Positions 16,011-37,519 of a stretch of 42,059 nucleotides of DNA are shown here, in pieces (the stretch's first letter is position 1; each line of letters opens with the position of its first letter). Position numbers and translations under genes: made by a program. The notes below the pieces were generated by a model that worked only from the letters and a program-made list of their open reading frames with translations, ran no database searches and was not told where the DNA came from. Origin of the DNA: Escherichia phage HHU8. Where the stretch lies: sequence record PQ641135; one strand, 5' to 3'.

Positions 16011-16429
16011 TACGGTTTCTCCAAATCAATGAAGCGGTACTCCTGAACGTAAGGCCGCACCATATGGGAGTAACCGCACCAACGCACACCCGCTGAACGG
16101 GCCACGTCTTTGAGTACACGGAGGATGGCACGCATCACTCCACGGTTTCTGTACTGGGGCCAGACGTATGAGGCCATAACGACCACCATCTCACCCACAT
16201 GAATATCGAATAACCTGCCGATGTGAGCAACAGCCATGAGGCTGCCGTCATCGTCAGTGATGTAAACGTCAACGCAGCCGGAGGCGGTGGCCTCGTACAT
16301 GCTGTCAACAATCACATCGGGAGATAGGTCTGACCATGGCCGCTCAGCTTGAATGCCCTCGGCCACAGCACGGCGAATGTCGAGTGGCATCGTCGTGTGT
16401 GATGTATTTCCCATAGTAGACACTTTCAT
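16010..16429 (-). CDS. putative GNAT-family N-acetyltransferase
   Basis: 139-aa ORF; contains an R-x-x-G-x-G/A acetyl-CoA-binding-like motif (RNRGVMRAIL) followed by an amphipathic helix, as in GNAT motif A. Its ATG (16427-16429) lies inside a copy of the 21-bp ATGAAAGTGTCTA motif. Confidence 0.4.
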   Translation of the reverse strand: MKVSTMGNTSHTTMPLDIRRAVAEGIQAERPWSDLSPDVIVDSMYEATASGCVDVYITDDDGSLMAVAHIGRLFDIHVGEMVVVMASYVWPQYRNRGVMRAILRVLKDVARSAGVRWCGYSHMVRPYVQEYRFIDLEKP

Positions 16430-16430
16430 T

Positions 16431-16616
16431 TCAAATCACTCTTTCTCTGATGAAATCCAGAACGTCTTGCTTACCAGCCTCTCTGTTAATCAGAGGTAGG
16501 TTAGTGTCGGGAGTGACTGTCTTACCTACCTGAGACCATGTACCGAAGTGCTTCTCCAGTAGAGCTATCTGTGCTTTAGTGAACTGAACTCTTTCAAGCG
16601 TAGATTCTTTACCCAT
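16431..16616 (-). CDS. hypothetical protein
   Basis: 61 aa from the ATG at 16614-16616, which is preceded by GAGAGGA; the longer track ORF would begin at a TTG. Confidence 0.4.
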   Translation of the reverse strand: MGKESTLERVQFTKAQIALLEKHFGTWSQVGKTVTPDTNLPLINREAGKQDVLDFIRERVI

Positions 16617-16677
16617 ACAATCCTCTCTTAGTGGCAGCAACCCCCGCCACTGACGGGGCTACCGGTAGCGTGATATC

Positions 16678-16698
16678 TATCACTATAGACACTTTCAT
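16678..16698 (+). promoter_or_regulatory. second copy of the 21-bp promoter-like element (plus strand TATCACTATAGACACTTTCAT) with an adjacent 14-bp palindrome, between the RNA polymerase gene and the late genes
   Basis: Plus strand 16670-16683 GTGATATCTATCAC is a palindrome; 16678-16698 is identical to the minus-strand sequence at 37488-37508. Lies in the 110-nt gap after the RNA polymerase stop. Orientation of function is ambiguous. Confidence 0.4.
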
Positions 16699-16726
16699 TT
16701 AAGTCAATGATACATATCACTATTTA

Positions 16727-19159
16727 TCAGCAGAAAAACTTGCTTGATTGTTTCACAAGTTGGATATCCAGATTGCCACGCTCAGGTGCAACAGCATTGT
16801 ATCGTACAGCAAGTTGTTGAATCGGGTCATGTTGCTCATACATCTGCACGAACTTTTCACGAATGACCTTGTGGAGTAACCCGGCATGAGCTGCTGCCAC
16901 CCCGAACGAATCGTGGATAGACACCATGTACACCCCGTTATTCCACATCTCCCACAACACCTTCATCATGTGGCTGGCATCCATAGCGTGTACGAAATTC
17001 GGAGCAATCGCAGCGGCACACTTCCTGCCATCAGGCTTGTCCAGATACTCGCGCAGCTTAATGCTGTGGATACCCATGAGGTTGATGTTATTGAGCATCG
17101 TCTCCTTGCTGGCTTGATACAGGTTCACCACTCGCAGCCCTGACGGTGCAATGATTTCCACGTACTCACCGTTGGCTGCCGCCTCTACCGCGATAGCCTG
17201 CAACCATGCCATCAGCTCTGCCGCCTTCGGCACAACGCGAGGGATTGCATTCCACATGAACTCTGCGATGAACTGCGCACACTCCAGTAGGCTCTTGCCG
17301 TCCGGCAGCTTGACCCGGTTCTCACGCAGGTACAGGCAGTAGTAGTCCACCATCCCGTGTCGGGTTGCCCCGTACACGTATGTCATCACTGGCTTCTTAG
17401 CCATCGCCCGGACAATGCCGATTGAAACAAGCCACGAACCCATCTGCGTCGGTGACTGCGCTTCACTATCTTCAAGAGCCTGCATCGCCGCTGCTGCCGT
17501 CTTGAGATATATGTCTGCTTTTCTTCCCACGCTATTGATAAGATTGACAGCAGCACCTCCAACTTCATCTCGTAGCATCGCACTGAGGTGCTGGAGTCCT
17601 GAACAGGTAGCATCCCATTGCGTGACCACTCGGCAGGGATAAGTCTCAGGATTTCCTGAGTCGATAGCGCGAATGAGTTCAACAGAGGCAGCCCACGCGC
17701 TGATAGGGCTATCGGCCTCTGACCAGAACGAATCAAATGCCTCTGGAAGACGGCACGCCTCACGTAGTCGGGGGAGTGTCTTGTCCGTCCACGCCGCCCG
17801 GTCGTCGAAGTCTGTTGCGTCGTAGCCGAAGCAATTCGCAACATGAACCTTGAGCCAGAACAGCCCCTCAGTTCCGAGAGCCACTGGTTCCGCAAGCTCA
17901 AGCAGCGCTCGCACCGCGTCGATAGACTGAGGATTAAGGGTCGAAGAATAATAAATTCGGCCCCGCGTATCGGCGTAAGTCGGGAGATAAATCCTATCGT
18001 ACTGCGCATACCTGTCTGCCTCTTTGACTGCACCATTCAGCGCCAGCATCTGTGACGTGAACTTACGCAACTCATTGTAATACAAGCGAGTCTTCACCTT
18101 GTACTCATGAGCTTCGGCATCCATCTGCTGCTGCATCTCTGGTGGGAACTTGCTGATGTACTGTGCAAAGCTCACACCAGCCGGGATGGTAAACGGAAGT
18201 GTAGGTTCACGAGGCGGCACAGGCAGCCCCATAACGCCTGTACGGTTCGTTCGCAGGAACTCCAGTACCATTGGGTTAACTCGGTACGGAACGCTGCTGA
18301 GCATCATACACGGCTCTATAACGGGGGTAGGGTCAACGTTCAATGCACGATACCCTTTATGGTTCATGCGGCTCATTACCCGGTACATCGCTGCCTGCCC
18401 ATCTGAATGCCACATACCGCTGCGACCGTTAGGTGCAATCTGCTTCGGCGGGATAATCAGTGGTGGGCAGCACATGCCATCAGCACGCGGCATGTCCAAC
18501 CAGTCATTCATCGTAGCCAGCACATCCTCGTGCAATGCAAAGTGTGCCGTACCGCGCTGGCGCTGGTTGCCTCCGACACGAATCGTGGACACCAGACCAG
18601 TTGGCTCAACGCACTTCATCATAAGCTTGCCAATGGTAATCAGCGCACGCTGCGGCAGCACATCAATCTCCACCCCAACGTTCGCCGCCGACGCACGCGC
18701 TTTGTTGTAGACGTGGTTCGCTGACTTCGAGCGAGACTTCTTCACGTCCTGCTTAACGCGCTCCATGTACGCCGCCTGCTGCGGCCCGGTCTGCTTCGCC
18801 CGGAGGTACACCACCTCAGCCATCAGTGCCTTGCCCATGCTCTTGAGCAGACTCAGTACCGCCTGCTCCGACGCAGCACCGGACACCGCCATGCTCAGTG
18901 CAAGAGAGGCACACGCTTTGGTGCCAATCTCACGCATGTACGTCCGGTACTGCGCACCATACCCACGGGTCGTTTCGCTCAGGGTTTCTTGCATCGCAGC
19001 TTCGACCAGAGGATAAGCCTCAACCATCATACGCTGGAGCAACGGCACCGACCCGGCGCGGCCACTGGCCATCGCCTCTTTGATATTATCCAGCCAGCCC
19101 TCGCGGTGTCTGGCTCGCGCTTCTTCTTCAAGTCGAATCTGCTCTGCAAGTAAATCCAC
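16727..19159 (-). CDS. single-subunit DNA-dependent RNA polymerase (T7 RNAP family)
   Basis: 810-aa ORF with hallmark motifs: DATCSGLQH (motif A), VMTYVYGAT (motif B region), HDSFG (motif C). Start is GTG at 19157-19159, 5 nt after a perfect AAGGAG. Confidence 0.9.
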   Translation of the reverse strand: MDLLAEQIRLEEEARARHREGWLDNIKEAMASGRAGSVPLLQRMMVEAYPLVEAAMQETLSETTRGYGAQYRTYMREIGTKACASLALSMAVSGAASEQAVLSLLKSMGKALMAEVVYLRAKQTGPQQAAYMERVKQDVKKSRSKSANHVYNKARASAANVGVEIDVLPQRALITIGKLMMKCVEPTGLVSTIRVGGNQRQRGTAHFALHEDVLATMNDWLDMPRADGMCCPPLIIPPKQIAPNGRSGMWHSDGQAAMYRVMSRMNHKGYRALNVDPTPVIEPCMMLSSVPYRVNPMVLEFLRTNRTGVMGLPVPPREPTLPFTIPAGVSFAQYISKFPPEMQQQMDAEAHEYKVKTRLYYNELRKFTSQMLALNGAVKEADRYAQYDRIYLPTYADTRGRIYYSSTLNPQSIDAVRALLELAEPVALGTEGLFWLKVHVANCFGYDATDFDDRAAWTDKTLPRLREACRLPEAFDSFWSEADSPISAWAASVELIRAIDSGNPETYPCRVVTQWDATCSGLQHLSAMLRDEVGGAAVNLINSVGRKADIYLKTAAAAMQALEDSEAQSPTQMGSWLVSIGIVRAMAKKPVMTYVYGATRHGMVDYYCLYLRENRVKLPDGKSLLECAQFIAEFMWNAIPRVVPKAAELMAWLQAIAVEAAANGEYVEIIAPSGLRVVNLYQASKETMLNNINLMGIHSIKLREYLDKPDGRKCAAAIAPNFVHAMDASHMMKVLWEMWNNGVYMVSIHDSFGVAAAHAGLLHKVIREKFVQMYEQHDPIQQLAVRYNAVAPERGNLDIQLVKQSSKFFC

Positions 19160-19161
19160 GA

Positions 19162-19476
19162 CTACTCCTTAACTTGTTTGCTCAGGTGCTCAATCAGCTT
19201 GCCGTCTTCGGCGTATTGCTCGACGAGGCCCACGCCATATGATGGCTTGCTCGGCTCGTCATATCCCGGCTGCGCTTGGTTACGCTGGCCTAAGTCACTC
19301 AGCACAGAATGTTGCAGTACCGGGTCATTCGTACCCGTACCGCCGCAGGCTTCGCAATCCATCAGGACTACTTGCCCACCAATCAACATGCCACGGTAGG
19401 TGCCGCTACCCATGCAGGCACCACACACTTTATGGTCAACCACCGTGTCGTCAATGGCTCTTTGATAACGACTCAT
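19162..19476 (-). CDS. small DnaJ-type zinc-finger protein
   Basis: 105 aa from the ATG at 19474-19476 (AGGAG 6 nt upstream); two CxxCxGxG repeats (CGACMGSG, CEACGGTG). Confidence 0.5.
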   Translation of the reverse strand: MSRYQRAIDDTVVDHKVCGACMGSGTYRGMLIGGQVVLMDCEACGGTGTNDPVLQHSVLSDLGQRNQAQPGYDEPSKPSYGVGLVEQYAEDGKLIEHLSKQVKE

Positions 19477-19484
19477 ATAATCTC

Positions 19485-19661
19485 CTACGCAAGACAGGCG
19501 AACAGAACAGCAGGGATGACAGCCAAGAATACCCACAGGATAAAGCCTTCTGCCCCGGCAGTGTCAACGTGGCTCTTGTTGTACTGGTCGCACGCGGCCA
19601 GACAGACAACAGAGAACAGGGCAAACCATACCACAGCTACAATCCAAAGTAAAACACTCAT
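19485..19661 (-). CDS. small membrane protein with two predicted transmembrane helices
   Basis: 58 aa from the ATG at 19659-19661 (MSVLLWIVAVVWFALFSVV...FILWVFLAVIPAVLFACLA); two hydrophobic stretches separated by a short polar loop. Confidence 0.4.
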   Translation of the reverse strand: MSVLLWIVAVVWFALFSVVCLAACDQYNKSHVDTAGAEGFILWVFLAVIPAVLFACLA

Positions 19662-20236
19662 TTGCGTTTCCTTAATTCGAGTTCCAGAATGAACAGCGCA
19701 TTGCACGCGGCGTGCGCCAGATGGTGCAGGTTGGATTCGCTATCCAGTTCCTCACCCTTACCCACCGCCGTCAGGTGTCGCAGCAGTGCTGACTTGTAGC
19801 GTTCCTCACCTTCCGGTACGGTCTGCCACGAGTGGGCTGCATACTTCTCAGCGCCGAAGGTCAGCACGCTGGCCACAGCCTCCAGTGCATTAGGGCAGCC
19901 GTCGAGCAGCAGTGACATACGAGGCTTGCCGCCGTCGAACTTCATGCCACCCGGCCCAGCGCCCTTGGCCACAGCCACCTCAACATCATGGGCCGGGTCG
20001 TAAGGGTCAACCGGGATGAATGCAATATCGACTTCCTTCACCTCGTAAGGTTCCAGCACCAGCAGGTGTGTCTTGCCATCCTTGACACAGGTGTAATAAT
20101 CACGGCTATCGTTCGGCACATCGTACGGCTCGTCGTACGTCAGGATGACACCTTGCTCAGCAATGTCGCTCAGCAGCGTGCCAGTACCCCAGTTGCGTGC
20201 CGGGTCTAAGATAAACTTCTGACCTTTCTTACCCAT
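19658..20236 (-). CDS. protein with a dATP/dGTP pyrophosphohydrolase-like C-terminal domain
   Basis: 192 aa from the ATG at 20234-20236 (GGAGGT upstream). The C-terminal half (MKFDGGKPRMSLL...LTFGAEKY...W...RYKSALLRHL...ESNLHHLAHAACNALFILE) follows the pattern I recall for the phage dATP/dGTP diphosphohydrolase N-terminal domain family; recalled from memory, not searched. Confidence 0.45.
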   Translation of the reverse strand: MGKKGQKFILDPARNWGTGTLLSDIAEQGVILTYDEPYDVPNDSRDYYTCVKDGKTHLLVLEPYEVKEVDIAFIPVDPYDPAHDVEVAVAKGAGPGGMKFDGGKPRMSLLLDGCPNALEAVASVLTFGAEKYAAHSWQTVPEGEERYKSALLRHLTAVGKGEELDSESNLHHLAHAACNALFILELELRKRK

Positions 20237-20756
20237 TCGCCTTACCTCCATCGACCTTAGAATCAGCGCCATCGTATTTAGCATTGGCATGAACATACTC
20301 ATGATTGTCCTCGTACCGGGTCACTTCATAAACCGTGATGCCGAGGCCACGCATGAAGTCAACGATGTGTGGCAGGTCGTCGAAAGCACACACGATGTTC
20401 TCAATGCCAATGTCCTCCAGCGCCGCCAGCTTCATCTCTGTGTCTTTACGGCAGTCGCCAATCTCTCTCATGATTAGCTTGTCGTAAACCACACCAGCTT
20501 CGTCAAGCCATTGCTCTGTTACTTCACGGGCCACGGCCCCGCGTCCGGTCAGGATGATAATGCGATACGTGAGGGCCAAGGCGTTCACAATATCAATCGT
20601 GTCCTGAAACGCAGGGTCGTCAGCGCCAGCCAAGTTGAACTCGGCCCACGCTTCATCAAGGTGCCGACGCTCCGGTGGAGGCAGCAGGTGTAGACGCCAG
20701 CGGCCATCAGCCAGCGTGCCGTCCAAATCAACGACTACGGTATCTTTCATGTGCAT
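20229..20756 (-). CDS. HAD-superfamily phosphatase (polynucleotide 3'-phosphatase-like)
   Basis: HAD motif I DxDGT at the N-terminus (VVVDLDGTLADG) when started at the ATGs at 20748-20756; the longer track ORF extends upstream in frame. Downstream acidic motifs are consistent with a HAD fold. Confidence 0.55.
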   Translation of the reverse strand: MHMKDTVVVDLDGTLADGRWRLHLLPPPERRHLDEAWAEFNLAGADDPAFQDTIDIVNALALTYRIIILTGRGAVAREVTEQWLDEAGVVYDKLIMREIGDCRKDTEMKLAALEDIGIENIVCAFDDLPHIVDFMRGLGITVYEVTRYEDNHEYVHANAKYDGADSKVDGGKANG

Positions 20757-20946
20757 CGTGTGCTTCCTCAAGAGCGAAGATAATATCTCGGACGTATGCC
20801 CAAGGCAACCAGACTTCCTCACCGTCCTGCGAAATACAGACGGTGCCATCTTTATACAGCTCGACCTGAGTGTTGGCCTCCCACCCAATGGAGAGGCCAT
20901 CCTCTTTGAGCTGCACCACATCTTCTTGGTACAGTGTTCTCGTCAC
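20728..20946 (-). CDS. hypothetical protein
   Basis: 72-aa ORF starting at a GTG that overlaps the upstream stop (GTGA), GGAG 9 nt upstream; no recognisable motif. Confidence 0.3.
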   Translation of the reverse strand: MTRTLYQEDVVQLKEDGLSIGWEANTQVELYKDGTVCISQDGEEVWLPWAYVRDIIFALEEAHDAHERYRSR

Positions 20947-22070
20947 TCCAACATCTCCGGGCTAATAGTGAATCGTGCGACCTCACCGTACCGGGCATGA
21001 TAAGTAATCACGCTCGCGCTGCGCTCACTCAACCAACCACCACGCGAAGCATAGGCATCCTTCGCCGCCAGCGTACGGTGCTGCTCGACAATCATGACAC
21101 CAGACTCCAGTACCTTCTTGTGGTGCAGGTGGCCAACGTGTGCATACGCATGTTTGGTTCGGCCATACACTTCGCGGAACTTGGCGACCAGTACAGTCTC
21201 CAGTTGTTCTGCCTTACGCTTGTGACCATGGTGGAAGAACAGTGCCGTCTCGCCATGCTCATAGCAGTAGTACGGGTCAGGGCTGCGGTCAACGGTAACA
21301 CGCGGCTCGTCGGCGTACAGTACATGCAGCAGCTCACGCATCCAGATTGAGCTGGCCATGTCGTGGTTGCCCTCGGCGCACACTACGTGAACCTGTGGGA
21401 ACTTATCCAGCAGCATACCAATGATGCGGCGCTGCGCCCGGATAGCCACACGCACCAGTTTCTGGAATCGCGTGTCAGCATCAAGCACATGCCCACTCGA
21501 TGGCGTTACTGCATCTAACCCATCCCAGTGCAGGAAGTCACCGAGCTGGCCGAAGATGGCAACCTGTGCTGGCGGCGCACTGGCAATCGCTGCCGAGAAC
21601 CACTTAACCAGCAGGTCTTCTGCAATCTTCATATCCCAGTCGTCGCCAGTTTCATCTGCCCATGCCAGCATACCGAGGTGGTAGTCAGTCAGCACAAACA
21701 GGTTCAGCAGCTCAGCAGGTGCCGCGCCCCCGGCGTACGGTCGGGCAGCTTCCGGGGTGATGCTCTCACTAATTGCATCGACAGCTTCTTGCAGCAGCGC
21801 CAGCTCCTGCTCACGGTCGAGTGCCGTCTTCACCCACTGCATGACAACGTTGCCGTCCTTATCGTACAGCGTGGACGTACCCTTCACCGCATACGGCTCC
21901 GGCACTTCCTTCGTCATGTCGTGCTCAGGACTCCAGCCGCTCTTGGCAAGCTGGCGCTTCCGGTATCGAATGGCGCTCTCGGTCATGTCGTGCTTCTCAG
22001 CAATGGCCTTGGTGCCAAGCCCTTCGGCAATGTCTTCTTTGAGTTGGTGATTAGTTAACTTGGTCATCAT
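20943..22070 (-). CDS. calcineurin-like metallophosphoesterase with N-terminal helix-turn-helix, putative DNA exonuclease
   Basis: 375-aa ORF; phosphoesterase motifs DxH (VLTDYHLG), GD (GQLGDFLH), GNHD (CAEGNHD) and GHxH (VGHLHH); the N-terminal ~40 aa look like a sigma-70 region-4 / LuxR-type HTH. ATG at 22068-22070 with AAGGGG upstream. Confidence 0.65.
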   Translation of the reverse strand: MMTKLTNHQLKEDIAEGLGTKAIAEKHDMTESAIRYRKRQLAKSGWSPEHDMTKEVPEPYAVKGTSTLYDKDGNVVMQWVKTALDREQELALLQEAVDAISESITPEAARPYAGGAAPAELLNLFVLTDYHLGMLAWADETGDDWDMKIAEDLLVKWFSAAIASAPPAQVAIFGQLGDFLHWDGLDAVTPSSGHVLDADTRFQKLVRVAIRAQRRIIGMLLDKFPQVHVVCAEGNHDMASSIWMRELLHVLYADEPRVTVDRSPDPYYCYEHGETALFFHHGHKRKAEQLETVLVAKFREVYGRTKHAYAHVGHLHHKKVLESGVMIVEQHRTLAAKDAYASRGGWLSERSASVITYHARYGEVARFTISPEMLE

Positions 22071-22399
22071 TTCCCCTTAGTGATTAAGGCTCGCGCTTTC
22101 GCGGCTGCCGCCTTCTTACGTCTCTCGGCTGTCGCCGCTTTCTTCTCTGCCTCGGTCTTGTGCGTTGGGTACATCAGACCAGTGTGTTGCTTACGTCGCC
22201 ACTCGATGGCGCTGTCCAGCCAGTCATCAACTGTGCGCTGGCGCTTCGCTCGGTTGGCAGAGTTCTCTACCTTGCCGAGCTGAGCATTACACCAGCGGCA
22301 GATGACACCGCGAATCTCCCCACTCACATGGTCGTGGTCAACCACCATGAGCTTGAGGTCTACCATCGGCTCGTTACAGAGTGGGCAAGGACAGCCCAT
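22067..22399 (-). CDS. endonuclease VII (Holliday-junction resolvase, T4 gp49-like)
   Basis: Zn-binding and catalytic signature CPCPLC...VVDHDHVSGEIRGVICRWCNAQLG matches the Endonuclease VII family pattern. Start is uncertain: ATGs at 22399, 22414 and 22459 all overlap the end of the exonuclease gene. Confidence 0.7.
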   Translation of the reverse strand: MGCPCPLCNEPMVDLKLMVVDHDHVSGEIRGVICRWCNAQLGKVENSANRAKRQRTVDDWLDSAIEWRRKQHTGLMYPTHKTEAEKKAATAERRKKAAAAKARALITKGK

Positions 22400-30624: not shown

Positions 30625-30821
30625 TTAATCCACCTCCGGCTCTGGCCTACACTCAGGCTCAACTGCATCAGACCCCAGCCCACCAGCATACCGAGCAGCG
30701 TGCCCAGTGTTGAAGTGGCTGACTCACCGACAGTAGGGATAAGCACCAGTGATGCAAGACCCACCCACAATGCTCCCCAAATAATTACCAGAAGCAGGAA
30801 CAACAATATTACTTTGAACAT
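30618..30821 (-). CDS. small membrane protein with two predicted transmembrane helices
   Basis: 67-aa ORF (MFKVILLFLLLVIIWGALWVGLASLVLIP...LGTLLGMLVGWGLMQLSL); ATG at 30819-30821 with GTGAGGTGA upstream; preceded by a hairpin and a copy of the ATGAAGGTGTCTATA motif. Confidence 0.45.
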   Translation of the reverse strand: MFKVILLFLLLVIIWGALWVGLASLVLIPTVGESATSTLGTLLGMLVGWGLMQLSLSVGQSRRWIKW

Positions 30822-30893
30822 AGTTCACCTCACGTTGGCCAATATAGACACCTTCATAATGCCTGCTAAATAATAACAGGCATGAGTAGATGA

Positions 30894-31064: not shown

Positions 31065-31560
31065 TCTTCGACTCCAGCATTGCACGAATCATTTTTTCAA
31101 CGTTACCCTTGAGGGTACGAATCGTTGCGTCAATGAACTCACCCACGAACAGCAGACCCAGCGCAGTCTCGCTGATATCCTTCGGCACGTTGGCACACGC
31201 CATGTACCAGTCGTGATACTGCTCAGCAATATCCTTGCTCGACATAGCCTGCGCCGCCAGCTTGCCAGCCAGACGCAGCTCGACCTGTGCTTCTTCATCG
31301 CCAGCAGCCTGCGCCACCCGCATGTTCATGCCGATGATGACGCTGACGTTGCGAGCCAGCAGCGCACCAGTACGAGTGGCCGGGATAATGTCCAGTGCCG
31401 CCTCTTTACCAGCACGCACCGCGCCGATGTAGCTTTGCTTCGGCATGTACCCGCCTTTGTACTCAATGATTTCACTGAGCATCGGCTCGCTGTCGATGTG
31501 CTCAGCCAGCAGCTTGATTACTTCCAACTGCTTAGGGTTAAATGTTTTGAAGTCAATCAT
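31048..31560 (-). CDS. hypothetical protein
   Basis: 170-aa ORF; ATG at 31558-31560 overlaps the upstream stop (ATGA). Confidence 0.5.
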   Translation of the reverse strand: MIDFKTFNPKQLEVIKLLAEHIDSEPMLSEIIEYKGGYMPKQSYIGAVRAGKEAALDIIPATRTGALLARNVSVIIGMNMRVAQAAGDEEAQVELRLAGKLAAQAMSSKDIAEQYHDWYMACANVPKDISETALGLLFVGEFIDATIRTLKGNVEKMIRAMLESKNATRH

Positions 31561-31856
31561 TTGTTATCCTCTTTCAGAATACGCACGGTGAACTCGTCGT
31601 CCTCGTACGCCTGCCACTCACGTTCAGGGCCATGTCCCAGTTTGGTAACAACCAGTCGGCTGCCGTCATACTCAACGGCACCGATGCGCTGGATGTACCC
31701 GCCGTATGCTACCACGTAGTCGCCCAGCTTAAGCTCCTGCGTTTTCTTCTCGACGTACTGAAACGGCGAGTCGTCATGCACAGGGACTGGCGGTGCGCCA
31801 AAGGCATCCACCAACCAGCGCTGTAGCTTGGCTACGTTCTCACTCCACTTACTCAT
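31557..31856 (-). CDS. hypothetical protein
   Basis: 99 aa from the ATG at 31854-31856, just after the upstream gene's stop. Confidence 0.45.
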   Translation of the reverse strand: MSKWSENVAKLQRWLVDAFGAPPVPVHDDSPFQYVEKKTQELKLGDYVVAYGGYIQRIGAVEYDGSRLVVTKLGHGPEREWQAYEDDEFTVRILKEDNK

Positions 31857-31858
31857 AG

Positions 31859-32143
31859 TCACACCTCTCTTTCTTCCAGCCATTGTTGCGCGGCTGCATA
31901 CGCATCTTCATAACTGATGAAGCCGTCGAACTCGTCGCCGTTCGGTGCGAGGAAGCACCAGTCGAGCTTCACATTAGGATTGCCACGAGCAAAGATAACG
32001 CAGGGAAACACACCGCCTACGCTGTGACCACGCAGGCCACCGTTGCCAGAGAGATGACCACGGGTAGCTGCGACCCCGCGCTTTTCAACTGCCGCCCGGA
32101 TATCTGCGGCGTGCTCAATGATTGATTCGGATGCCAGTACCAT
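31859..32143 (-). CDS. hypothetical protein
   Basis: 94-aa ORF; ATG at 32141-32143 with GTGAGGT upstream. Confidence 0.45.
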   Translation of the reverse strand: MVLASESIIEHAADIRAAVEKRGVAATRGHLSGNGGLRGHSVGGVFPCVIFARGNPNVKLDWCFLAPNGDEFDGFISYEDAYAAAQQWLEEREV

Positions 32144-32145
32144 GA

Positions 32146-32298
32146 TTAATACCTCACTAAATAATATTCCCAGTGCATGAAGTGGCCGCCGAGATACACG
32201 GCATGGCTCACCAGATTAGGGTTGCTTGCCCCACCCAGCGCACAGTAACCAGCGTAGGTTAACTGATTGGCGTGAGCATTATATGTGCTGCCGCCCAT
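32146..32298 (-). CDS. small hypothetical protein (50 aa), below the ORF-track length cutoff
   Basis: My own translation: ATG at 32296-32298 preceded by GGAGGT with ~6-nt spacing; 50 codons (MGGSTYNAHANQLTYAGYCALGGASNPNLVSHAVYLGGHFMHWEYYLVRY) ending at TAA 32146-32148, directly upstream of the next gene's start. Confidence 0.3.
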   Translation of the reverse strand: MGGSTYNAHANQLTYAGYCALGGASNPNLVSHAVYLGGHFMHWEYYLVRY

Positions 32299-32355
32299 AC
32301 TTACCTCCATCGTTTGATAATGACACTGCCCCCGGCACGCAGAGGCAGTAGCTTA

Positions 32356-32601
32356 TCACACTTCGATGGTGCCAGCCAGTTCATACGGGCCGAAGCAATT
32401 GATGACAGCTTGCGACTTGACATGCGTGCGGTTAGCTTCGAAGCCTGCACGCTTGGTGGTTGCGATGCGCTGCACATCAGCCAGTGTCTCAGCCGCCGCG
32501 CCGTTCATTGCAATCACATCGACCGGAGCTACAATCTGCTGCCCTTCCGGTACGATAGTCCAGTCACCCTCGCCGTCTTTGTATACGTCATACTTAGCCA
32601 T
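32356..32601 (-). CDS. hypothetical protein
   Basis: 81-aa ORF; ATG at 32599-32601 with GAGAGG upstream. Confidence 0.45.
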   Translation of the reverse strand: MAKYDVYKDGEGDWTIVPEGQQIVAPVDVIAMNGAAAETLADVQRIATTKRAGFEANRTHVKSQAVINCFGPYELAGTIEV

Positions 32602-32659
32602 GTTTGCCTCTCGTTTATTTGATAGTGGTACAGCCCCTGCAAGCAGAGGCTATAGATTA

Positions 32660-32911
32660 TTACTCGACGAACTTGAATGACTTACCTTCATGGTAGTCAA
32701 TGTGTGCGCTAGCTAAGTCACCCACTTCATCACGGAAACTGACCGAGCGCTTGTCAACTTCATCCCCTTCGGCGTCCACTTCGCCCGGTTCGAGGATGAG
32801 TACATCGTACTCTTTACCCTCAACGGTATCGAGGAACGGACAGAAGGTGCCGAACGGAGTAGGACGGCCACAGTCGTTGCGCAGAATTACAATCTTAGCT
32901 TGAGTGCTCAT
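32660..32911 (-). CDS. hypothetical acidic protein
   Basis: 83 aa from the ATG at 32909-32911 (GAGGT upstream); acidic stretch EPGEVDAEGDEVD. Confidence 0.45.
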   Translation of the reverse strand: MSTQAKIVILRNDCGRPTPFGTFCPFLDTVEGKEYDVLILEPGEVDAEGDEVDKRSVSFRDEVGDLASAHIDYHEGKSFKFVE

Positions 32912-32999
32912 ATAAAACCTCACGTTAGGTTGATGTTATGACCGATGATGCGAATCAGAATTGAACGTGCCATGTTGTTACCCTCTCTTGTGTTGTGGA

Positions 33000-33242
33000 T
33001 TAAACGATTTCAAACCAGTCGTGAGACTGCGTGAAGAAGTCACACGGATGGCCGCGCTCGTCCAGTACAGCCACGGTCTCGAAGCCTGCTACATCTTCGG
33101 CGTTCTTACCGTAGACTTTGGCCAGCTTGGGGAAAGCCTTGACCAGATTCTCGCCAGCATCAATGAGCACTGCATCGTACTCGTTGCCAACGGTGAAGCC
33201 AGCGCGACGGCCTACTACTTTCAACTTAACTTTCTTGCTCAT
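33000..33242 (-). CDS. hypothetical protein
   Basis: 80-aa ORF; ATG at 33240-33242 with GAGGAA upstream; overlaps the upstream stop. Confidence 0.45.
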   Translation of the reverse strand: MSKKVKLKVVGRRAGFTVGNEYDAVLIDAGENLVKAFPKLAKVYGKNAEDVAGFETVAVLDERGHPCDFFTQSHDWFEIV

Positions 33243-33580
33243 GATTGTTCCTCGTTGTCAATACCAAAGAGATACATCTGCCCTTCATAGATGGGAGTCA
33301 GTACCTTGAGCCACGTCTGGACAGCCAGCGGCGCGGCGCTATGATGTTGCTCGTTCAGCAGGTCAATGATGAATGGCCTGCGCCCGGCGTACGCTTTGAA
33401 GCGGTCGATGATTTGCTCGTCGGTCGCCTCGCTCGTCAGCATGTGCTGACCTAAGATTTCAATCTGGTCAATGACGACCAGCCCTTCCTGACCATCGGGC
33501 AGGCGGTACAGCAGTACCGCCACGTCTTGCCCATCCGTAATGTCAGGCCCACGGAATACCTTGACCGGATGCAGCGCCAT
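33239..33580 (-). CDS. hypothetical acidic protein
   Basis: 113-aa ORF; ATG at 33578-33580 with GAGGT upstream. Confidence 0.45.
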   Translation of the reverse strand: MALHPVKVFRGPDITDGQDVAVLLYRLPDGQEGLVVIDQIEILGQHMLTSEATDEQIIDRFKAYAGRRPFIIDLLNEQHHSAAPLAVQTWLKVLTPIYEGQMYLFGIDNEEQS

Positions 33581-33582
33581 GC

Positions 33583-33867
33583 TTAGACCTCGAAGCTACC
33601 AATCGCCTCGTAGCCCTGAGCAGGCATGTTCTCAGCCGCGCTAGCGTTCAAGGTGCCTCCGTTCAGCAGGAACGCCAAGTCACCCATGCGGCTGATATCA
33701 GATTCCAGCGATGGCAGCGCAGCCTTAGCATCTTCCACCGTGTTCAGTTCCGGTACTTCTTTGCAGCCAGAGATACACAGCGCCATGTTGCCTTCTTCGA
33801 ATCCATCGCCCACGACTGCAACGATATCTTTTTGGGAAGCAGAGTAGTAAGCAGTTACTTTAGCCAT
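33583..33867 (-). CDS. small acidic early protein (member of the hairpin/box-preceded array)
   Basis: 94 aa from the ATG at 33865-33867 (GAGGG upstream); preceded by hairpin 33905-33928 and box GGCATGATTGCC 33890-33901 (plus-strand view). Confidence 0.45.
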   Translation of the reverse strand: MAKVTAYYSASQKDIVAVVGDGFEEGNMALCISGCKEVPELNTVEDAKAALPSLESDISRMGDLAFLLNGGTLNASAAENMPAQGYEAIGSFEV

Positions 33868-33889
33868 GATAAAACCCTCAGTTAGTTGC

Positions 33890-33928
33890 GGCATGATTGC
33901 CCTACAGCCCACCGCTACGGATGGGCTG
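33890..33928 (-). promoter_or_regulatory. intergenic hairpin plus GCAATCATGCC box (unit 1 of 4-5)
   Basis: Minus strand: stop, hairpin CAGCCCA-N10-TGGGCTG, then GCAATCATGCC, then ~20 nt, SD, ATG at 33867. Confidence 0.45.
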
Positions 33929-33935
33929 ACAGAAA

Positions 33936-34166
33936 TCACGCAGTCGCTATGACTTCACCTTCGAGTGCAGCTTCCACCGCCTCAGCGTAGCCCGGAATGG
34001 CCTGCGCTTCTTCGATATCTTCCATGTCATCATCGACTTTGAACCAGCGACGAGCGCTGTGTTCGCTGTTGTAGATGGCGACCAGCGTGCGGTCATTAGC
34101 AAACTGCGCGAATGTTTCTTCGCCATCGTTCGGGTCGATGAAGCGTACCAGTTCAAACTTAGCCAT
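33936..34166 (-). CDS. small acidic early protein
   Basis: 76-aa ORF; ATG at 34164-34166 with AGGAG upstream; acidic (DDDMEDIEEAQ). Confidence 0.45.
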   Translation of the reverse strand: MAKFELVRFIDPNDGEETFAQFANDRTLVAIYNSEHSARRWFKVDDDMEDIEEAQAIPGYAEAVEAALEGEVIATA

Positions 34167-34194
34167 GCTTTGTACTCCTATTGTTGGTGGTCGG

Positions 34195-34470
34195 TTACTC
34201 GAAGTCAGCCGCGTCTACGTTGTCGGCTTCGAAGCTGGTGATGAAGCTCGGCTCCAGTTCGTTCAGCTTCTCGACTGACAGCTTGCCACCTTGAATGGCA
34301 ATCAGCATACCGCCGAGGTCTTCCAGAGCCTCGCGCACTTCACCGATTACTTCATCGTGGCTTGCGTCCGGCTTCGGCTGCACGCCCAGCGACGGTGCGT
34401 TATCTTTGGTCTCGCCTACGATGAAAGCCAGACCGCCGTTGTTCAGTGCAAACACATTGATAGTGGACAT
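34195..34470 (-). CDS. small acidic early protein (member of the hairpin/box-preceded array)
   Basis: 91 aa from the ATG at 34468-34470; acidic C-terminus (EADNVDAADFE); preceded by box GGCATGATTGCC at 34492-34503 and a GC-rich hairpin. Confidence 0.45.
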   Translation of the reverse strand: MSTINVFALNNGGLAFIVGETKDNAPSLGVQPKPDASHDEVIGEVREALEDLGGMLIAIQGGKLSVEKLNELEPSFITSFEADNVDAADFE

Positions 34471-34491
34471 AATAAATCCTCGATAGGTTAG

Positions 34492-34530
34492 GGCATGATT
34501 GCCGCATTGCCCCCTCGCAAGGAGGCAACA
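34492..34530 (-). promoter_or_regulatory. intergenic hairpin plus GCAATCATGCC box (unit 2)
   Basis: Box (plus-strand view GGCATGATTGCC) at 34492-34503, preceded on the minus strand by an imperfect GC-rich hairpin (TTGCCTCC...GGGGGCAA); ATG of the downstream gene at 34470. Confidence 0.45.
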
Positions 34531-34535
34531 AGGTA

Positions 34536-34877
34536 TCACGCGTCGAAGTCGATATCGTCTTCCGCGTCGTACTCTTTGAGCACGTTGATAACCACATCTT
34601 CACCCAGTGTTTCGGTGTCGATGTAGGAGTGGCCGCCCATGAGAGCGAACAGTTCCAGCGGGAAGCCAGACTCGCGGAACTCTGCGAAGCTGGTGTCGTT
34701 ATCGAAGTGCGCCACGATAGCGTCAGGTGAATCGCCGTCGCGGTTGCGGCCTGCAATCAGGTAACGCTCGTCGTCCTGAGTGAAGCCAACCCACTCGCTG
34801 GTGATAGCGTCAGCCGGAACGCCTGCACCAAAAGCAGAGGCAGCGATGTTGGACAGCAGAACCAGTTTGATAGACAT
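34536..34877 (-). CDS. small acidic early protein (member of the hairpin/box-preceded array)
   Basis: 113 aa from the ATG at 34875-34877; acidic C-terminus (EYDAEDDIDFDA); preceded by box GGCATTATTGCC at 34900-34911 and hairpin 34915-34937. Confidence 0.45.
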   Translation of the reverse strand: MSIKLVLLSNIAASAFGAGVPADAITSEWVGFTQDDERYLIAGRNRDGDSPDAIVAHFDNDTSFAEFRESGFPLELFALMGGHSYIDTETLGEDVVINVLKEYDAEDDIDFDA

Positions 34878-34899
34878 AGTAAAACCCTCAATTGAGTAA

Positions 34900-34937
34900 G
34901 GCATTATTGCCACGCTGCGCCCTCGTTGAAGGCGCAG
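34900..34937 (-). promoter_or_regulatory. intergenic hairpin plus GCAATAATGCC box (unit 3)
   Basis: Box at 34900-34911, hairpin CTGCGCC-N9-GGCGCAG at 34915-34937; ATG of the downstream gene at 34877. Confidence 0.45.
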
Positions 34938-34948
34938 CAGGACAACGC

Positions 34949-35230
34949 TTACTCGTCGTCAACCTCGGCTTCAAAGGTGCCGATTTCTTCCAGCGTCAGG
35001 CCGCTACCGTGACGCGCTTTCAGCTCGTCTTCATCATGCTCAGCCAGCATGATGATGAACTCATGCGGCAGCGGGATGCCTTTCAGCGTTTCAAGGATGC
35101 CAGCGGCATCGGTCGGCTCACCGTCTTCACGAACGTGGTGCAGGTACTGGCCCGGATTGATGGACACAGCATAGCCGTACACTTCGCCGTCACGATTGGT
35201 AGTGAATGCAGTTACAGTTTTGGTAGTCAT
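34949..35230 (-). CDS. small acidic early protein (member of the hairpin/box-preceded array)
   Basis: 93 aa from the ATG at 35228-35230; acidic (EHDEDELK...EAEVDDE); preceded by box GGCAGAATTGCC at 35254-35265 and hairpin 35269-35292. Confidence 0.45.
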   Translation of the reverse strand: MTTKTVTAFTTNRDGEVYGYAVSINPGQYLHHVREDGEPTDAAGILETLKGIPLPHEFIIMLAEHDEDELKARHGSGLTLEEIGTFEAEVDDE

Positions 35231-35253
35231 GGATGATACTCCGTAATGGTTGG

Positions 35254-35292
35254 GGCAGAATTGCCATAAAGCCAGCGCCTTGACACTGGCTT
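35254..35292 (-). promoter_or_regulatory. intergenic hairpin plus GCAATTCTGCC box (unit 4)
   Basis: Box at 35254-35265, hairpin AAGCCAG-N10-CTGGCTT at 35269-35292; ATG of the downstream gene at 35230. Confidence 0.45.
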
Positions 35293-35306
35293 GAGTCAAT
35301 CCCGGC

Positions 35307-35501
35307 CTATTCCTCACAGATGAGGTAGCGGGTTCCGCTTTCAGTGACCGCAACGGCACCTTCGAACGATGCGACAGGTGAAGTCGTTACAGGCGTGCCA
35401 TTACTGAAACGCTGGTCACGGTCATTGTAGATATGACCTACGAGGCAGCGCCCTCTGGTGATGCTGCTGCGGGTTACGAGAACCGCGTCGAACTCTTGCA
35501 T
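35307..35501 (-). CDS. hypothetical protein
   Basis: 64-aa ORF; ATG at 35499-35501 with GGAG upstream; preceded by hairpin 35532-35552. Confidence 0.4.
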   Translation of the reverse strand: MQEFDAVLVTRSSITRGRCLVGHIYNDRDQRFSNGTPVTTSPVASFEGAVAVTESGTRYLICEE

Positions 35502-35560
35502 GTTTACACTCCAGTTGTGTGGTTACAATTCAGGCCACTCAGTGAATGGCCTGTCAGTAA

Positions 35561-36088
35561 TCACGCAGCTTTCAGCTTGCGCAGCCCGTCCAGTACGTTC
35601 TGAGGCACGACAACCTTGTTCGCGTCCTCATCGCGCCCTTCATGGCGCAGCTCGTTCGCCTTGCTCATTGCTTTTTCAGCTTTGGCAATGAGCTTGTCCA
35701 GCGCTTCTTGCAGGTCGAAGCCTTCGAACGCTGGCTCAGGCTTGCAAGTCCACCACATCGTGGCTTTCGCCTTGTCGATGTTCAGCTTGATATGCTCCGC
35801 GCCTTTCCAGCCCACGAAGCCCGTCTTGCCGTCGTCCTTCTCGCCCACAATCAGTCCGCCGAACTGGACGAACCAGTCAACCAGCGCTTTACCACGGACG
35901 CCTTCACCCAGTTGGTTGGTGAAGGTTTCAGCACGGGTGTAGTCGCCGTGGTTGTAAGCGTGCAGGATAATGCCGACCGCAACGTTCTGAATCTCATTAC
36001 GGAGTGAGTGCGCCTTTTTAACAGTCGCTTCGATAGCTTTGTCCAGCGCCGCAGCGTCTTTGAACGCGGTATATTTAACAGTAGTCAT
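35561..36088 (-). CDS. hypothetical early protein
   Basis: 175 aa from the ATG at 36086-36088 (AAGGTGA upstream); the track ORF begins 3 codons earlier at a GTG. Confidence 0.5.
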   Translation of the reverse strand: MTTVKYTAFKDAAALDKAIEATVKKAHSLRNEIQNVAVGIILHAYNHGDYTRAETFTNQLGEGVRGKALVDWFVQFGGLIVGEKDDGKTGFVGWKGAEHIKLNIDKAKATMWWTCKPEPAFEGFDLQEALDKLIAKAEKAMSKANELRHEGRDEDANKVVVPQNVLDGLRKLKAA

Positions 36089-36163
36089 GATAGTCACCTT
36101 GTCGGTTGGTTGATTTCACATAGCGCCCCGCAGGACGCTATAGGCTATCAGCCACGGCGTTTG

Positions 36164-36556
36164 CTACGCCTCTACTACCCAAAATTGCGCACCATCGTAA
36201 GTCCAAGCAGTGTACTGCCCGGCTTCCATCTCGGCCTCAGTCTTACTGACTAACTTGCCAGCAGGCTTGCCCGGACATGGTGAATCCATGAAGATTGCAT
36301 CATCATCATCAGTCACTACCATGATGCAGTCCTGTTCAAGAGCCTTACAGAACAGCTTAATAGCCTGCCTGATTTCATAGATTCCATCGACAGGAAATAC
36401 CATGCTCAACTCGTACTGATTGTCGAACTTGCCTGTCAGTGTGACCGGAATCACTCCGAACATATCCTGCACCGTTCGCAGTGCCTTGCAATGAAGCGCC
36501 AGATTAACACACTCAGCATTGTTCTGACGATATGCGCTTGCATAGATACGGTACAT
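36164..36556 (-). CDS. hypothetical protein, first early gene downstream of the sigma70-type promoters
   Basis: 130-aa ORF; ATG at 36554-36556 with GGAGAA upstream; lies ~450 nt downstream of the tandem promoters. Confidence 0.5.
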   Translation of the reverse strand: MYRIYASAYRQNNAECVNLALHCKALRTVQDMFGVIPVTLTGKFDNQYELSMVFPVDGIYEIRQAIKLFCKALEQDCIMVVTDDDDAIFMDSPCPGKPAGKLVSKTEAEMEAGQYTAWTYDGAQFWVVEA

Positions 36557-37014
36557 AGTTATTTCTCCAGTTGTTGGCTATTTTCAGGTGGATAGTGAAC
36601 CCATTGTGACGCGCCGTACAGTCTGCACTCGTTGGCATTGATTGGCTTGTCGGATTCACTACCCTGAAAAATCGCCCCGCCCATTTCGCGCTGTGAGTAT
36701 TGTCTTCACTCACTCTCAGGAGTCTTCCAGCAGTCCGGCTCACCGTCACCAGCTTATGCCTACCTACCCGCTATACTCCGCGCCTTATAAGACGTTTGGG
36801 ATTGTGCTGATACTGCGCTGCGTCTATCGCGCTTCTCCGTTCCCTTGCATCGGGCGCTACCCCTACGGCGTTAGCATTGTTGCGATACCGTTGCCTTTCG
36901 GCGATGCCTCACCCAGTTCCAACCTGCGGCGGATACCCAGTGAGCCGTGACACTACGCGGCCAGTTTGCGTTCACTCAGAGCAGGATGCTTTCCATCCTT
37001 TCAACTCGGTGCTG

Positions 37015-37043
37015 ATTACAACACAGTGTATTCAGCTTGTCAA
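37015..37043 (-). promoter_or_regulatory. sigma70-type early promoter P3 (TTGACA - 17 bp - TGTAAT)
   Basis: Minus strand TTGACA (37038-37043), 17-nt spacer, TGTAAT (37015-37020) with TGT upstream; third tandem copy. Confidence 0.6.
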
Positions 37044-37083
37044 CTACTTTTTACTTCTGACTGACTGGCTTACTGCCTGTCAA

Positions 37084-37112
37084 TCTGGTGTGTATTACAG
37101 CATACTCGTTCC
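37084..37112 (-). promoter_or_regulatory. sigma70-type early promoter P2 (TTGACA - 17 bp - TGTAAT)
   Basis: Minus strand TTGACA (37107-37112), 17-nt spacer, TGTAAT (37084-37089) with TGC upstream; same architecture as P1. Confidence 0.6.
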
Positions 37113-37229
37113 ATCCTGTCAACCGATTTAATCAGCGCCCGTTCTGAGATGATTAGACCGTACCAGTTTGCCTGCGTGGGTTTTAACGTCTTTATCCATG
37201 ACTGTTTGGCTTGCTGGTTGACTGGAAGC

Positions 37230-37258
37230 ATTACAGCATAGTGAGTTTGCCTTGTCAA
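37230..37258 (-). promoter_or_regulatory. sigma70-type early promoter P1 (TTGACA - 17 bp - TGTAAT)
   Basis: On the minus strand: TTGACA (plus coordinates 37253-37258), exact 17-nt spacer, TGTAAT (37230-37235), with TGC immediately upstream of the -10 hexamer (extended -10-like). Points toward the early genes. Confidence 0.6.
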
Positions 37259-37330
37259 CACACCAGATTGTTAAAGAGCAGTGTTACCGTTCAATCTTGT
37301 CTACTGGGCTAGTGCCTTTCGACGTGATGA

Positions 37331-37360
37331 ATTACAGCACATAACCAAAACAGTTTGCAA
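37331..37360 (-). promoter_or_regulatory. possible weaker sigma70-type promoter P4 (TTGCAA - 18 bp - TGTAAT)
   Basis: Minus strand TTGCAA (37355-37360), 18-nt spacer, TGTAAT (37331-37336). Confidence 0.35.
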
Positions 37361-37381
37361 GTATTATTTTCAAGAAAAGTG

Positions 37382-37479
37382 ATAAGTTACTGTAATCATT
37401 GAGATTAAAGTTTGATTGGATAATCACAACACTGGATAGAATACCGTTATCAGATAGGTCATAAGTTACTGTAATCATT
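37382..37479. repeat. AT-rich region with a 19-bp perfect direct repeat (ATAAGTTACTGTAATCATT x2)
   Basis: Identical 19-mers at 37382-37400 and 37461-37479 within an AT-rich block between the T-depleted tract and the sigma70 promoters. Confidence 0.5.
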
Positions 37480-37487
37480 AGATAATT

Positions 37488-37508
37488 ATGAAAGTGTCTA
37501 TAGTGATA
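37488..37508 (-). promoter_or_regulatory. promoter-like element with T7-class core (minus strand reads TATCACTATAGACACTTTCAT), upstream of the sigma70 promoters
   Basis: Minus strand carries ...GATACTATATCACTATAG|ACAC...; the core TCACTATAG matches the conserved -8..+1 of T7/SP6/K11-group promoters. It sits just upstream of the tandem early promoters, comparable to the T7 left-end phage promoter. Perfect 21-bp inverted copy of 16678-16698. Confidence 0.4.
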
Positions 37509-37519
37509 TAGTATCGCTA

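Follow-up and report, generated by a model that had tools for sequence, protein, structure and literature searches.

Predicted promoters of the phage-encoded RNA polymerase in Escherichia phage HHU8, with an inverted copy at the left genome end

Introduction

Escherichia phage HHU8 (sequence record PQ641135) carries a short repeated DNA element in a few dispersed copies, and here we compare this element with the promoters of phage-encoded single-subunit RNA polymerases (RNAPs); the whole stretch of 42,059 nucleotides that was analysed is referred to as the window. In T7, T3 and SP6 a homologous single-subunit RNAP uses promoters of ~20 bp in which an upstream region is bound, the AT-rich bases after it are melted and transcription starts at a G, a design that the window element may follow, and the specificity loop of the enzyme co-evolves with the upstream promoter bases, as it appears to do in the window. 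The T7 promoter phiOL fires rightward, and T7 is not known to have an antisense promoter.

Among the phiKMV-like phages the most detailed description is that of Pseudomonas phage LUZ19, in which ONT-cappable-seq identified four promoters with a common 20-bp motif (PMC10914365). Two of these lie past the RNAP gene, one (P009) in the structural region and one (P001) in antisense orientation at the left end; the transcripts of the latter reach the right genome end, the promoter is conserved in 15 other Phikmvvirus species, and the authors suggest that it stops transcription from continuing into the early genes (PMC10914365). For two further relatives the RNAP promoter has been validated in vitro, namely T(A/G)ATGTTACAGGAGTA followed by G in KP34 (PMC6834552) and AATGTATACCCCTATATACAC in Cronobacter phage Dev-CD-23823, hereafter CD23823 (PMC12272871). 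The genome of Pantoea phage LIMEzero (NC_015585) is annotated with two 'putative phage specific promoters', one at 20330-20349, past the RNAP gene, and one at 7294-7313, before the primase, with a factor-independent terminator annotated immediately before the latter.

The window represents a Bonnellvirus genome (phiKMV-like coliphage, Autographiviridae), circularly permuted and complete or nearly so, and is ~97% identical to Escherichia phages mellemsur and megetsur. We propose, with a probability of roughly 0.85, that the repeated element is a promoter of this phage's own T7-family single-subunit RNAP, predicted from its sequence to be read ATGAAAGTGTCTA towards the start site. Below we detail the copies of the element, their co-variation with the polymerase, their predicted direction and the possible roles of the one copy that points away from the genes.

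The repeated element and its copies

The 21-mer ATGAAAGTGTCTATAGTGATA is present exactly twice, at 16678-16698 on the minus strand and at 37488-37508 on the plus strand, and the two form a perfect inverted pair. An initial annotation of the window had reported this pair together with flanking similarity and two degenerate copies, and had considered it a dispersed regulatory element beyond chance expectation. All of these observations were recovered: the similarity extends over ~50 bp around both exact copies with small gaps (TGT(A)ATCATT...CGCTA), and the degenerate copies at 16417-16429 and 30845-30857 agree with the 13-mer core at 13 and 12 of 13 positions, respectively. When the window was shuffled with dinucleotide composition preserved, the 21-mer with up to three mismatches had no match in any of 100 shuffles, and the 13-mer core, which with up to two mismatches has six matches in the window, was expected 0.79 times and reached six in no shuffle. 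The same two-mismatch search added a fifth family member that had been missed, at 3299-3311 on the minus strand. The sixth match, at 39437-39449, was rejected as a chance look-alike; it coincides with the start codon of the spanin gene, is preceded by an ordinary ribosome-binding site and does not vary among the eight genomes compared. The five copies and the polymerase gene are as follows.

16678..16698, minus strand: predicted post-RNAP (late) promoter copy ATGAAAGTGTCTATAGTGATA, exact 21-mer, co-varying in all relatives
37488..37508, plus strand: left-end antisense copy, exact reverse complement of the post-RNAP copy, predicted start G 37505, alternatively 37503
30837..30857, minus strand: predicted pre-primase (middle) copy ATGAAGGTGTCTATATTGGCC, 12/13 core match, predicted start G 30840
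16409..16429, minus strand: predicted second late copy ATGAAAGTGTCTACTATGGGA, 13/13 core match, predicted start G 16412
3291..3311, minus strand: copy inside the internal-virion-protein gene (2343-5441), ATGAGGGTGTCTACTAAGGAA, 11/13 core match, predicted start G 3294
16727..19159, minus strand: single-subunit RNAP gene, 810 amino acids, phmmer match to T7 RNA polymerase structures, so annotated in relatives

Every gene of the window lies on the minus strand, and so do four of the five copies (30857, 16698, 16429 and 3311), each ahead of a middle or late gene block. The RNAP gene is identified by residues 6-781 of its product, which match T7 RNA polymerase structures (phmmer, E = 1e-57). The post-RNAP copy is located 28 bp past the stop of this gene (16727) and upstream of a 61-amino-acid gene starting at 16616; its predicted binding region is the 13-mer at 16686-16698 and its predicted start is G 16681, alternatively G 16683. 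The pre-primase copy precedes the gene starting at 30821 and the primase/helicase module. The second late copy overlaps the start codon and first codons of a gene at 16010-16429, and the copy at 3291..3311 lies in frame, encodes MRVSTKEG and would drive transcription of the genes for tailspike, terminase and lysis. The gene starts at 16429, 16616 and 30821, which the initial annotation had placed at or just downstream of the element, are the same in the annotation of the near-identical megetsur.

One structural feature adjoins the pre-primase copy.

30859..30883, minus strand: ten-base-pair hairpin adjoining the predicted pre-primase promoter, RNA fold z-score -3.67

By analogy with the annotation of LIMEzero, the hairpin and the copy that follows it may represent a terminator-then-promoter arrangement.

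Host sigma70 promoters were considered as an explanation of the copies and rejected. A consensus scan of 16300-16900 and 36400-38200 returned no sigma70 site, and the TTGACT upstream of the 16698 copy sits 14 bp from TATAGT (sigma70 spacing tested: 16-18 bp). An Rfam search over the whole window found no family, and the 5' leaders predicted for the late and the antisense transcript fold no better than shuffled sequences (z = -1.5 and +1.2, respectively).

Some further observations concern the surroundings of the two exact copies. The late-transcript leader at 16625-16668 (minus strand) contains a palindrome, GCTACCGGTAGC, and a hairpin, CCCCGTCAGTGGCGGGG, both of which are kept in altidsur, Kc261, usur, RZ4 and ROV85 and absent in J8-65 and Lidtsur. 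On the plus strand, two 28-nucleotide direct repeats lie 79 bp apart at 37373-37400 and 37452-37479 (…ATAAGTTACTGTAATCATT), the second just upstream of the inverted copy; a similar sequence, TGTATCATTGACTTAA, precedes the post-RNAP copy, and TCATTAGA precedes the left-end copy of LIMEzero. These repeats may act as an upstream promoter element or else be left over from a tandem duplication.

Co-variation of core variants and the polymerase specificity loop

The element was followed in eleven relatives, each sampled at two to five sites, which with the window makes 12 genomes; among the relatives are seven complete and three partial genomes (megetsur, altidsur, RZ4, ROV85, Kc261, usur, J8-65, smaasur, Lidtsur and LIMEzero); the eight complete genomes are seven Bonnellvirus genomes, the window included, and LIMEzero. 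At all sampled sites the core takes the form specific to the lineage, and five such variants were seen in total.

Window, megetsur, altidsur: core GTGTCTA; full ATGAA(A/G)GTGTCTA
RZ4, ROV85: core GTGACTA; full ATGAAAGTGACTA
Kc261, usur: core GCTACTA; full ATGAAAGCTACTA
J8-65, smaasur, Lidtsur: core GTA(A/T)CTG; full ATGAAAGTA(A/T)CTG
LIMEzero: core GGCAAGCACTA; full (A/T)(T/A)(G/A)AAGGCAA(G/T)CACTA

The comparison with related genomes that the initial annotation had proposed thus finds both positions of the exact pair occupied in relatives, each by the variant of the lineage concerned, and the inverted left-end copy bears the lineage's own variant in eight of eight complete genomes. The pre-primase copy likewise co-varies in Kc261, J8-65, smaasur and Lidtsur (of these, Kc261 alone was re-anchored). 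As a negative control, the look-alike at the spanin start does not co-vary among the eight genomes.

Both copies that overlap genes also keep to the variant of their lineage, and the price is a change in the encoded amino acids. The N-terminus of the protein encoded at 16010-16429 shifts with the promoter variant (MKVST, MKATT, MKVTV/MKVSV, MRVTA, MKAST), and so do the codons within the internal-virion-protein gene, which read MRVSTKEG, MRATTKEG or MRASTKEG; the site is ATGAGGGCTACTA in Kc261, ATGAAGGTATCTG in Lidtsur and ATGAGGGCAAGCA in LIMEzero, and the serine codon switches families, from TCT to AGC, among lineages. This pattern bears on the idea that the element works at the level of translation or coding, as a common start codon and leader (MKVS...) for small peptides or genes. 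Every window copy does begin with ATG, two are in frame with real genes and the 16698 copy opens an open reading frame (ORF) of 29 codons. Against this, it is the amino acids that change while the DNA motif is kept, and not the reverse; the copies at 16698, 30857 and 37488 lack a Shine-Dalgarno sequence, the ORFs that they open run to just 7, 10 and 29 codons, and the intergenic copies of LIMEzero start with ATA and TTA. We regard a coding role as scarcely credible. The 29-codon ORF, to which the initial annotation had drawn attention, does exist, but it does not hold up as a gene since neither frame nor length is conserved among relatives: it has 27 codons in altidsur, is read through in another frame in Kc261 and is unrelated in J8-65 and Lidtsur. 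The seven-codon ORF at the left end was also rejected as a gene, its frame not being conserved.

The 139-amino-acid product of 16010-16429, whose start the second late copy overlaps, is a GNAT acetyltransferase (PF00583, above the Pfam cutoff), and the gene may be a candidate for Rac, an RNAP-alpha-cleavage acetyltransferase known from phiKMV-like phages (PMC7552054).

We propose that it is the RNAP of the window that recognises the element. The T7 specificity loop corresponds to approximately residues 684-712 of the window RNAP, and its homologue is encoded as follows.

17057..17101, minus strand: encodes residues 687-701 of the RNAP (ETMLNNINLMGIHS), which are homologous to the T7 promoter-specificity loop and align with T7 residues ~739-760

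The RNAPs of the window and Kc261 are 91% identical overall, and residues 687-701 form their most divergent 15-residue stretch, in which nine residues differ and an indel occurs, compared with 1.3 differences on average; the corresponding loop of Kc261 reads ESPM-HLHLMGVHQ. Across residues 686-703, nine of 18 positions differ (hypergeometric p = 4.8e-6). Altidsur, which has the promoter variant of the window, has no loop differences from it, and usur combines the promoter variant of Kc261 with exactly the loop of Kc261. RZ4 and ROV85, whose promoter variant is one base removed, have a loop that differs at three residues. Conservation is seen both in the homologue of the T7 AT-rich recognition loop (TRGxGAQYR) and in ATGAAAG, the upstream half of the element. 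The specificity loop of the RNAP therefore changes in step with the promoter variants.

It is against this background that an operator for another DNA-binding protein has to be judged, an option that the initial annotation had named. The obvious candidate is a small protein with two CxxCxGxG zinc-finger motifs, encoded just upstream of the RNAP, for which the orientation of the element would be immaterial and whose binding would control transcription or replication in the vicinity. A single inverted copy would then matter little, the overlap of two copies with coding sequence would be accommodated and the protein itself is variable among lineages. Its variation does not follow the promoter variants, however: in the variable segment Kc261 and Lidtsur are alike despite different cores, whereas J8-65 and Lidtsur differ despite a common core. 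Moreover, the Pfam match of the protein is below cutoff, none of the copies is a palindrome, in position and in their (T/A)AATG start they agree with mapped or validated single-subunit RNAP promoters, and the co-variation with the RNAP loop is specific and significant. We consider an operator improbable. The candidate itself is a 104-amino-acid protein (19162-19476, minus strand) with a weak match, 20 bits, to the DnaJ central domain; in related phages it is annotated as 'anti-termination protein Q-like', and its C-terminal length varies among lineages (77-104 amino acids). It is possible that this protein is a cofactor of the RNAP.

Direction and anatomy of the predicted promoter

All five copies consist of the 13-mer, four mostly A/T bases and an invariant G 18 nucleotides from the A of ATG; the two perfect copies, which are of the TATAG type, also have a G at 16 nucleotides and with it a second possible start. 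We propose that the shared 13-mer is the polymerase-binding region, from about -17 to -5, and that it would be followed by a short AT-rich melting stretch and by initiation at the invariant G. Read in the ATGAAAG direction, the exact 21-mer spans roughly -17/-15 to +4/+6, which is the canonical extent of a T7-type promoter.

The initial annotation had recognised a phage promoter but preferred the opposite strand, on which the sequence reads TATCACTATAG up to the start and ACAC beyond it and resembles T7, SP6 and K11 promoters. On that strand the left-end copy would point towards the early genes, like T7 phiOL, and the copy at 16678-16698 would fire antisense into the RNAP gene. The resemblance is real in that CACTATAG matches T7 positions -7 to +1 and the upstream flank of the 16698 copy agrees with T7 at several positions; KP34, too, has a forward-pointing phage promoter at its left end, at an equivalent distance from the direct terminal repeat (DTR). 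Both strands look T7-like, however, because CTATAG is a palindrome, and it is this that gave rise to the opposite reading. Three considerations decide for the ATGAAAG direction. All five copies share the 13-mer on that side, whereas CACTATAG occurs in just two of the five, and on the opposite strand the common part would sit at +1 to +11, inside the transcript and downstream of the supposed start. The lineage-specific bases, which co-vary with the loop, would fall at +2 to +4, again within the transcript, where there is nothing for the specificity loop to read; in T7 this loop reads upstream bases. Finally, four of the five copies would fire against every gene of the window. The extent of the exact 21-mer quoted above is likewise obtained in the ATGAAAG direction only. 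We judge the T7-style orientation very improbable.

Identification of the element as a promoter of the phage RNAP is thus upheld by the co-variation, while the strand initially preferred for it is not. The alternative that the initial annotation had also mentioned, with three copies pointing in the gene direction, agrees with the shared 13-mer and the co-variation and is the orientation adopted here. It follows from this orientation that the left-end copy points away from the early genes, at the terminal repeat, and that the copy at 16678-16698 would fire into the late genes.

The inverted copy at the left genome end

The left end of the genome is defined by the following features.

36164-36556, minus strand: first early gene (SAMase)
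38073-38609, minus strand: last gene (endolysin)
37755..37989, minus strand: approximate DTR, boundaries inferred from homologous sequence in J8-65, in which the ends and a DTR of 259 bp are annotated
37503..37989, plus strand: stretch from the predicted antisense promoter to the genome end, 487 nucleotides; A 0.28, C 0.31, G 0.31, T 0.09

The genome ends are held in the 1.5-kb non-coding stretch between the endolysin and SAMase genes, and by homology with J8-65 the physical left end lies at ~37989 and reads TCGACCCAAA... on the gene strand. The inverted copy is placed between the DTR, ~250 bp away, and the early promoters, the first sigma70 promoter lying ~230 bp to its right. The early promoters are probably three GTTGACA-N17-TGTAAT repeats on the gene strand (37015-37044, 37094-37123 and 37230-37259), which the consensus scanner did not call and which would be recognised by the host polymerase; the region that holds them is 88.6% identical to J8-65, compared with ~75% for the genome as a whole.

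The same position recurs elsewhere. The gap between the inverted copy and the DTR is about 250 bp in the window and ~277 bp in J8-65, and in LUZ19, where the motif occupies 736-748 (minus strand) and the DTR 1-472, it amounts to 264 bp; the sigma70 promoters of LUZ19 begin at 913, ~165 bp from the motif. A distance of ~250-280 bp between the DTR and the inverted promoter is thus kept both in the Pseudomonas and in the enterobacterial genera, whose promoter sequences are unrelated.

The stretch that would be transcribed from the inverted copy has an unusual composition. On its transcript-sense strand 8.8% of the bases in 37503..37989 are T, against about 23% genome-wide, and the same T-poor skew is present at the left ends of J8-65 (9.0%), LUZ19 (6.8%) and LIMEzero (13%); in KP34, with its forward-pointing left-end promoter, the skew is weaker (15.8%). 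The sequence downstream of the inverted copy is not conserved between the window and J8-65 but the composition bias is. Because the bias is kept while the sequence drifts, this suggests that it is the act of transcription, and not the RNA product, that matters at the left end. The stretch also contains short CAGCAGACAGGACAGCAC-type repeats.

Gene-strand positions 37733-37751 (minus strand), directly inside the terminal repeat, read GGGTATCTGTCTCTTTTCG (also given as TATCTGTCTCTTTT), a sequence that resembles the class II pause/termination signal of T7 (ATCTGTT plus U-run). In T7 this signal sits at the concatemer junction. The pause-like signal is kept in seven of seven Bonnellvirus genomes, 242-296 nucleotides left of the inverted promoter, and was not found in LIMEzero with the search pattern used.

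What the inverted copy does can be approached in two ways. By analogy with the proposal made for LUZ19 P001, its most likely role would be to meet and block late read-through before this re-enters the early region. The alternative accepts that the copies are promoters and assigns the inverted one to DNA transactions, such as the priming or opening of replication, the processing of concatemer junctions or the duplication of the DTR for packaging. In T7, phage promoters serve as origins of replication and the RNAP is needed for concatemer processing. The nearly constant distance to the DTR in the window, J8-65 and LUZ19 (about 250-277 bp), the fact that the inverted copy points straight at the DTR and the strand bias of the transcribed region (7-13% T), which persists while the sequence drifts, would all suit such a role. 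The region downstream of the inverted copy is GC-rich, however, with no AT-rich origin-like stretch, KP34 manages with a forward-pointing copy, and nothing in the sequence tells this role from that of an insulator; we hold a role in DNA transactions to be unlikely, although well worth bearing in mind. With similar reserve we put forward a more specific version, in which the backward left-end promoter would be ancient and indispensable to the machinery that phiKMV-like phages use at their genome ends, as opposed to a minor insulator of transcription. It would drive a U-poor and hard-to-terminate transcript across the repeat and the concatemer junction, facing the pause signal, and convergent transcription could mark or open the junction for cutting, repeat duplication or the restart of replication.

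Comparison with described systems

The predicted promoter layout of the window is a new example of the design mapped in LUZ19 and would not surprise a specialist who knows the LUZ19 map. In both genomes a few copies of one ~20-bp motif are found, two promoters lie downstream of the RNAP gene and one in the structural region, and an opposite-strand copy is situated between the DTR and the sigma70 early promoters; in Bonnellvirus, as in the genus of LUZ19, relatives retain this antisense copy. Unlike LUZ19, Bonnellvirus has an extra copy before the primase and two copies embedded in coding sequence, and its promoters are predicted from sequence. The resemblance is one of layout and not of sequence family, a different motif being expected for a different RNAP.

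The RNAP of LIMEzero is 70% identical to that of the window. The annotated LIMEzero promoters at 20330-20349 and 7294-7313 are the positional counterparts of the 16698 and 30857 copies, and the sequences are recognisably homologous (TAAAGGCAA(G/T)CACTA in LIMEzero and AAATGAAAGTGTCTA in the window), with different specificity bases. Three further copies in LIMEzero are unannotated: an inverted one near the left end (minus strand, ~639-660), one at the start of ORF36 (20742, plus strand) and one inside ORF45 (33868, plus strand). A relic of the Bonnellvirus-type element, ATGTAAGTGTATGTATTGAT, lies ~20 bp upstream of the inverted copy of LIMEzero (region to ~685).

The validated promoters of KP34 and CD23823 share with the window the (T/A)AATG start and, in the case of CD23823, CTATA just before the start site; copies are again found past the RNAP gene and in the structural region, and one copy of KP34 lies ~260 bp from its DTR, comparable with the distance in the window. 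The central specificity bases differ from those of the window and the RNAPs are distant, that of CD23823 being 30% identical. In CD23823 the validated promoter forms a divergent pair past the RNAP gene (19301, minus strand, and 19334, plus strand), one copy firing into the late genes and the other antisense into the RNAP gene, and another forward copy is found at position 19 of the record. The inverted copy of CD23823 is thus located right past the RNAP gene, unlike that of the window at the left end.

The window differs from T7 in having five copies as opposed to 17, in its consensus and in that the apparent CACTATAG match lies on the strand predicted to be non-functional.

Several observations weigh against our proposal or narrow it. 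Promoter activity and the start base are inferred, for this phage as for Bonnellvirus generally, and a literature search found no Bonnellvirus transcript data. The geometry is not settled: the spacing from the 13-mer to the start differs between the two types of copy (TATAG and CTA(A/T)GG), and the validated relatives differ as well, initiating 15 nucleotides (KP34) and ~17 nucleotides (CD23823) after the A of ATG. Pairing of core and loop is not one-to-one, as Lidtsur and J8-65 have the same core variant and somewhat different loops. The LUZ19 motif GgtTATGTCACacACAnnGG (compared with AATGAAAGTGTCTATAGTG in the window) has six matches in the window against 11.5 expected, none of them at the five sites, and the strong promoter of KP34 has no match in the window within three mismatches, the TAATG start alone being common to the two. 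KP34 has its left-end copy on the forward strand, so not every phiKMV-like phage carries an antisense copy at this end, and for LUZ19, too, what the antisense copy does is hypothetical.

A predicted transcription programme

Taken at face value, the arrangement of the copies would provide for the following sequence of events. The host polymerase would transcribe the early and middle genes, that of the phage RNAP included. The phage RNAP would then bind the 13-mer, melt the AT-rich bases that follow and start at the G. From the 30857 copy, positioned after the hairpin, it would reinforce expression of the replication genes and of its own gene, while the 16698 copy, directly past the RNAP gene, and the start at 16412 would give the late transcripts, and from 3294 transcription would be re-initiated through the genes for tailspike, terminase and lysis. 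The inverted copy (37488-37508) would send the phage RNAP leftward through the U-poor 487 nucleotides and across the terminal repeat, and on concatemers this transcription would run antisense into the lysis genes of the preceding unit.

One further repeat of the window may be mentioned in connection with the early genes. A 41-nucleotide sequence occurs in three copies between them (33861-33901, 34463-34503 and 34871-34911; GGCAATCATGCC…GAGGGTTTTATCATGGCTA on the gene strand), and the copies look like a common hairpin, ribosome-binding site and start codon at early-gene junctions.

Implications

The Bonnellvirus coliphages gain a promoter map with five sites, each with a predicted direction and start; promoters go unmentioned in the Bonnellvirus genome papers that we checked. 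LIMEzero gains three unannotated sites. The antisense left-end promoter of LUZ19 is extended from Pseudomonas Phikmvvirus to two enterobacterial genera with an unrelated motif, which argues that the arrangement is selected and not a quirk of one lineage. The copies embedded in coding sequence provide a clear case of a DNA signal overriding protein sequence. Lastly, the close lineages constitute a natural series of polymerase/promoter pairs that are one to three bases and a few loop residues apart, and this series offers material for the engineering of orthogonal transcription and for the study of specificity rules outside the T7 group.

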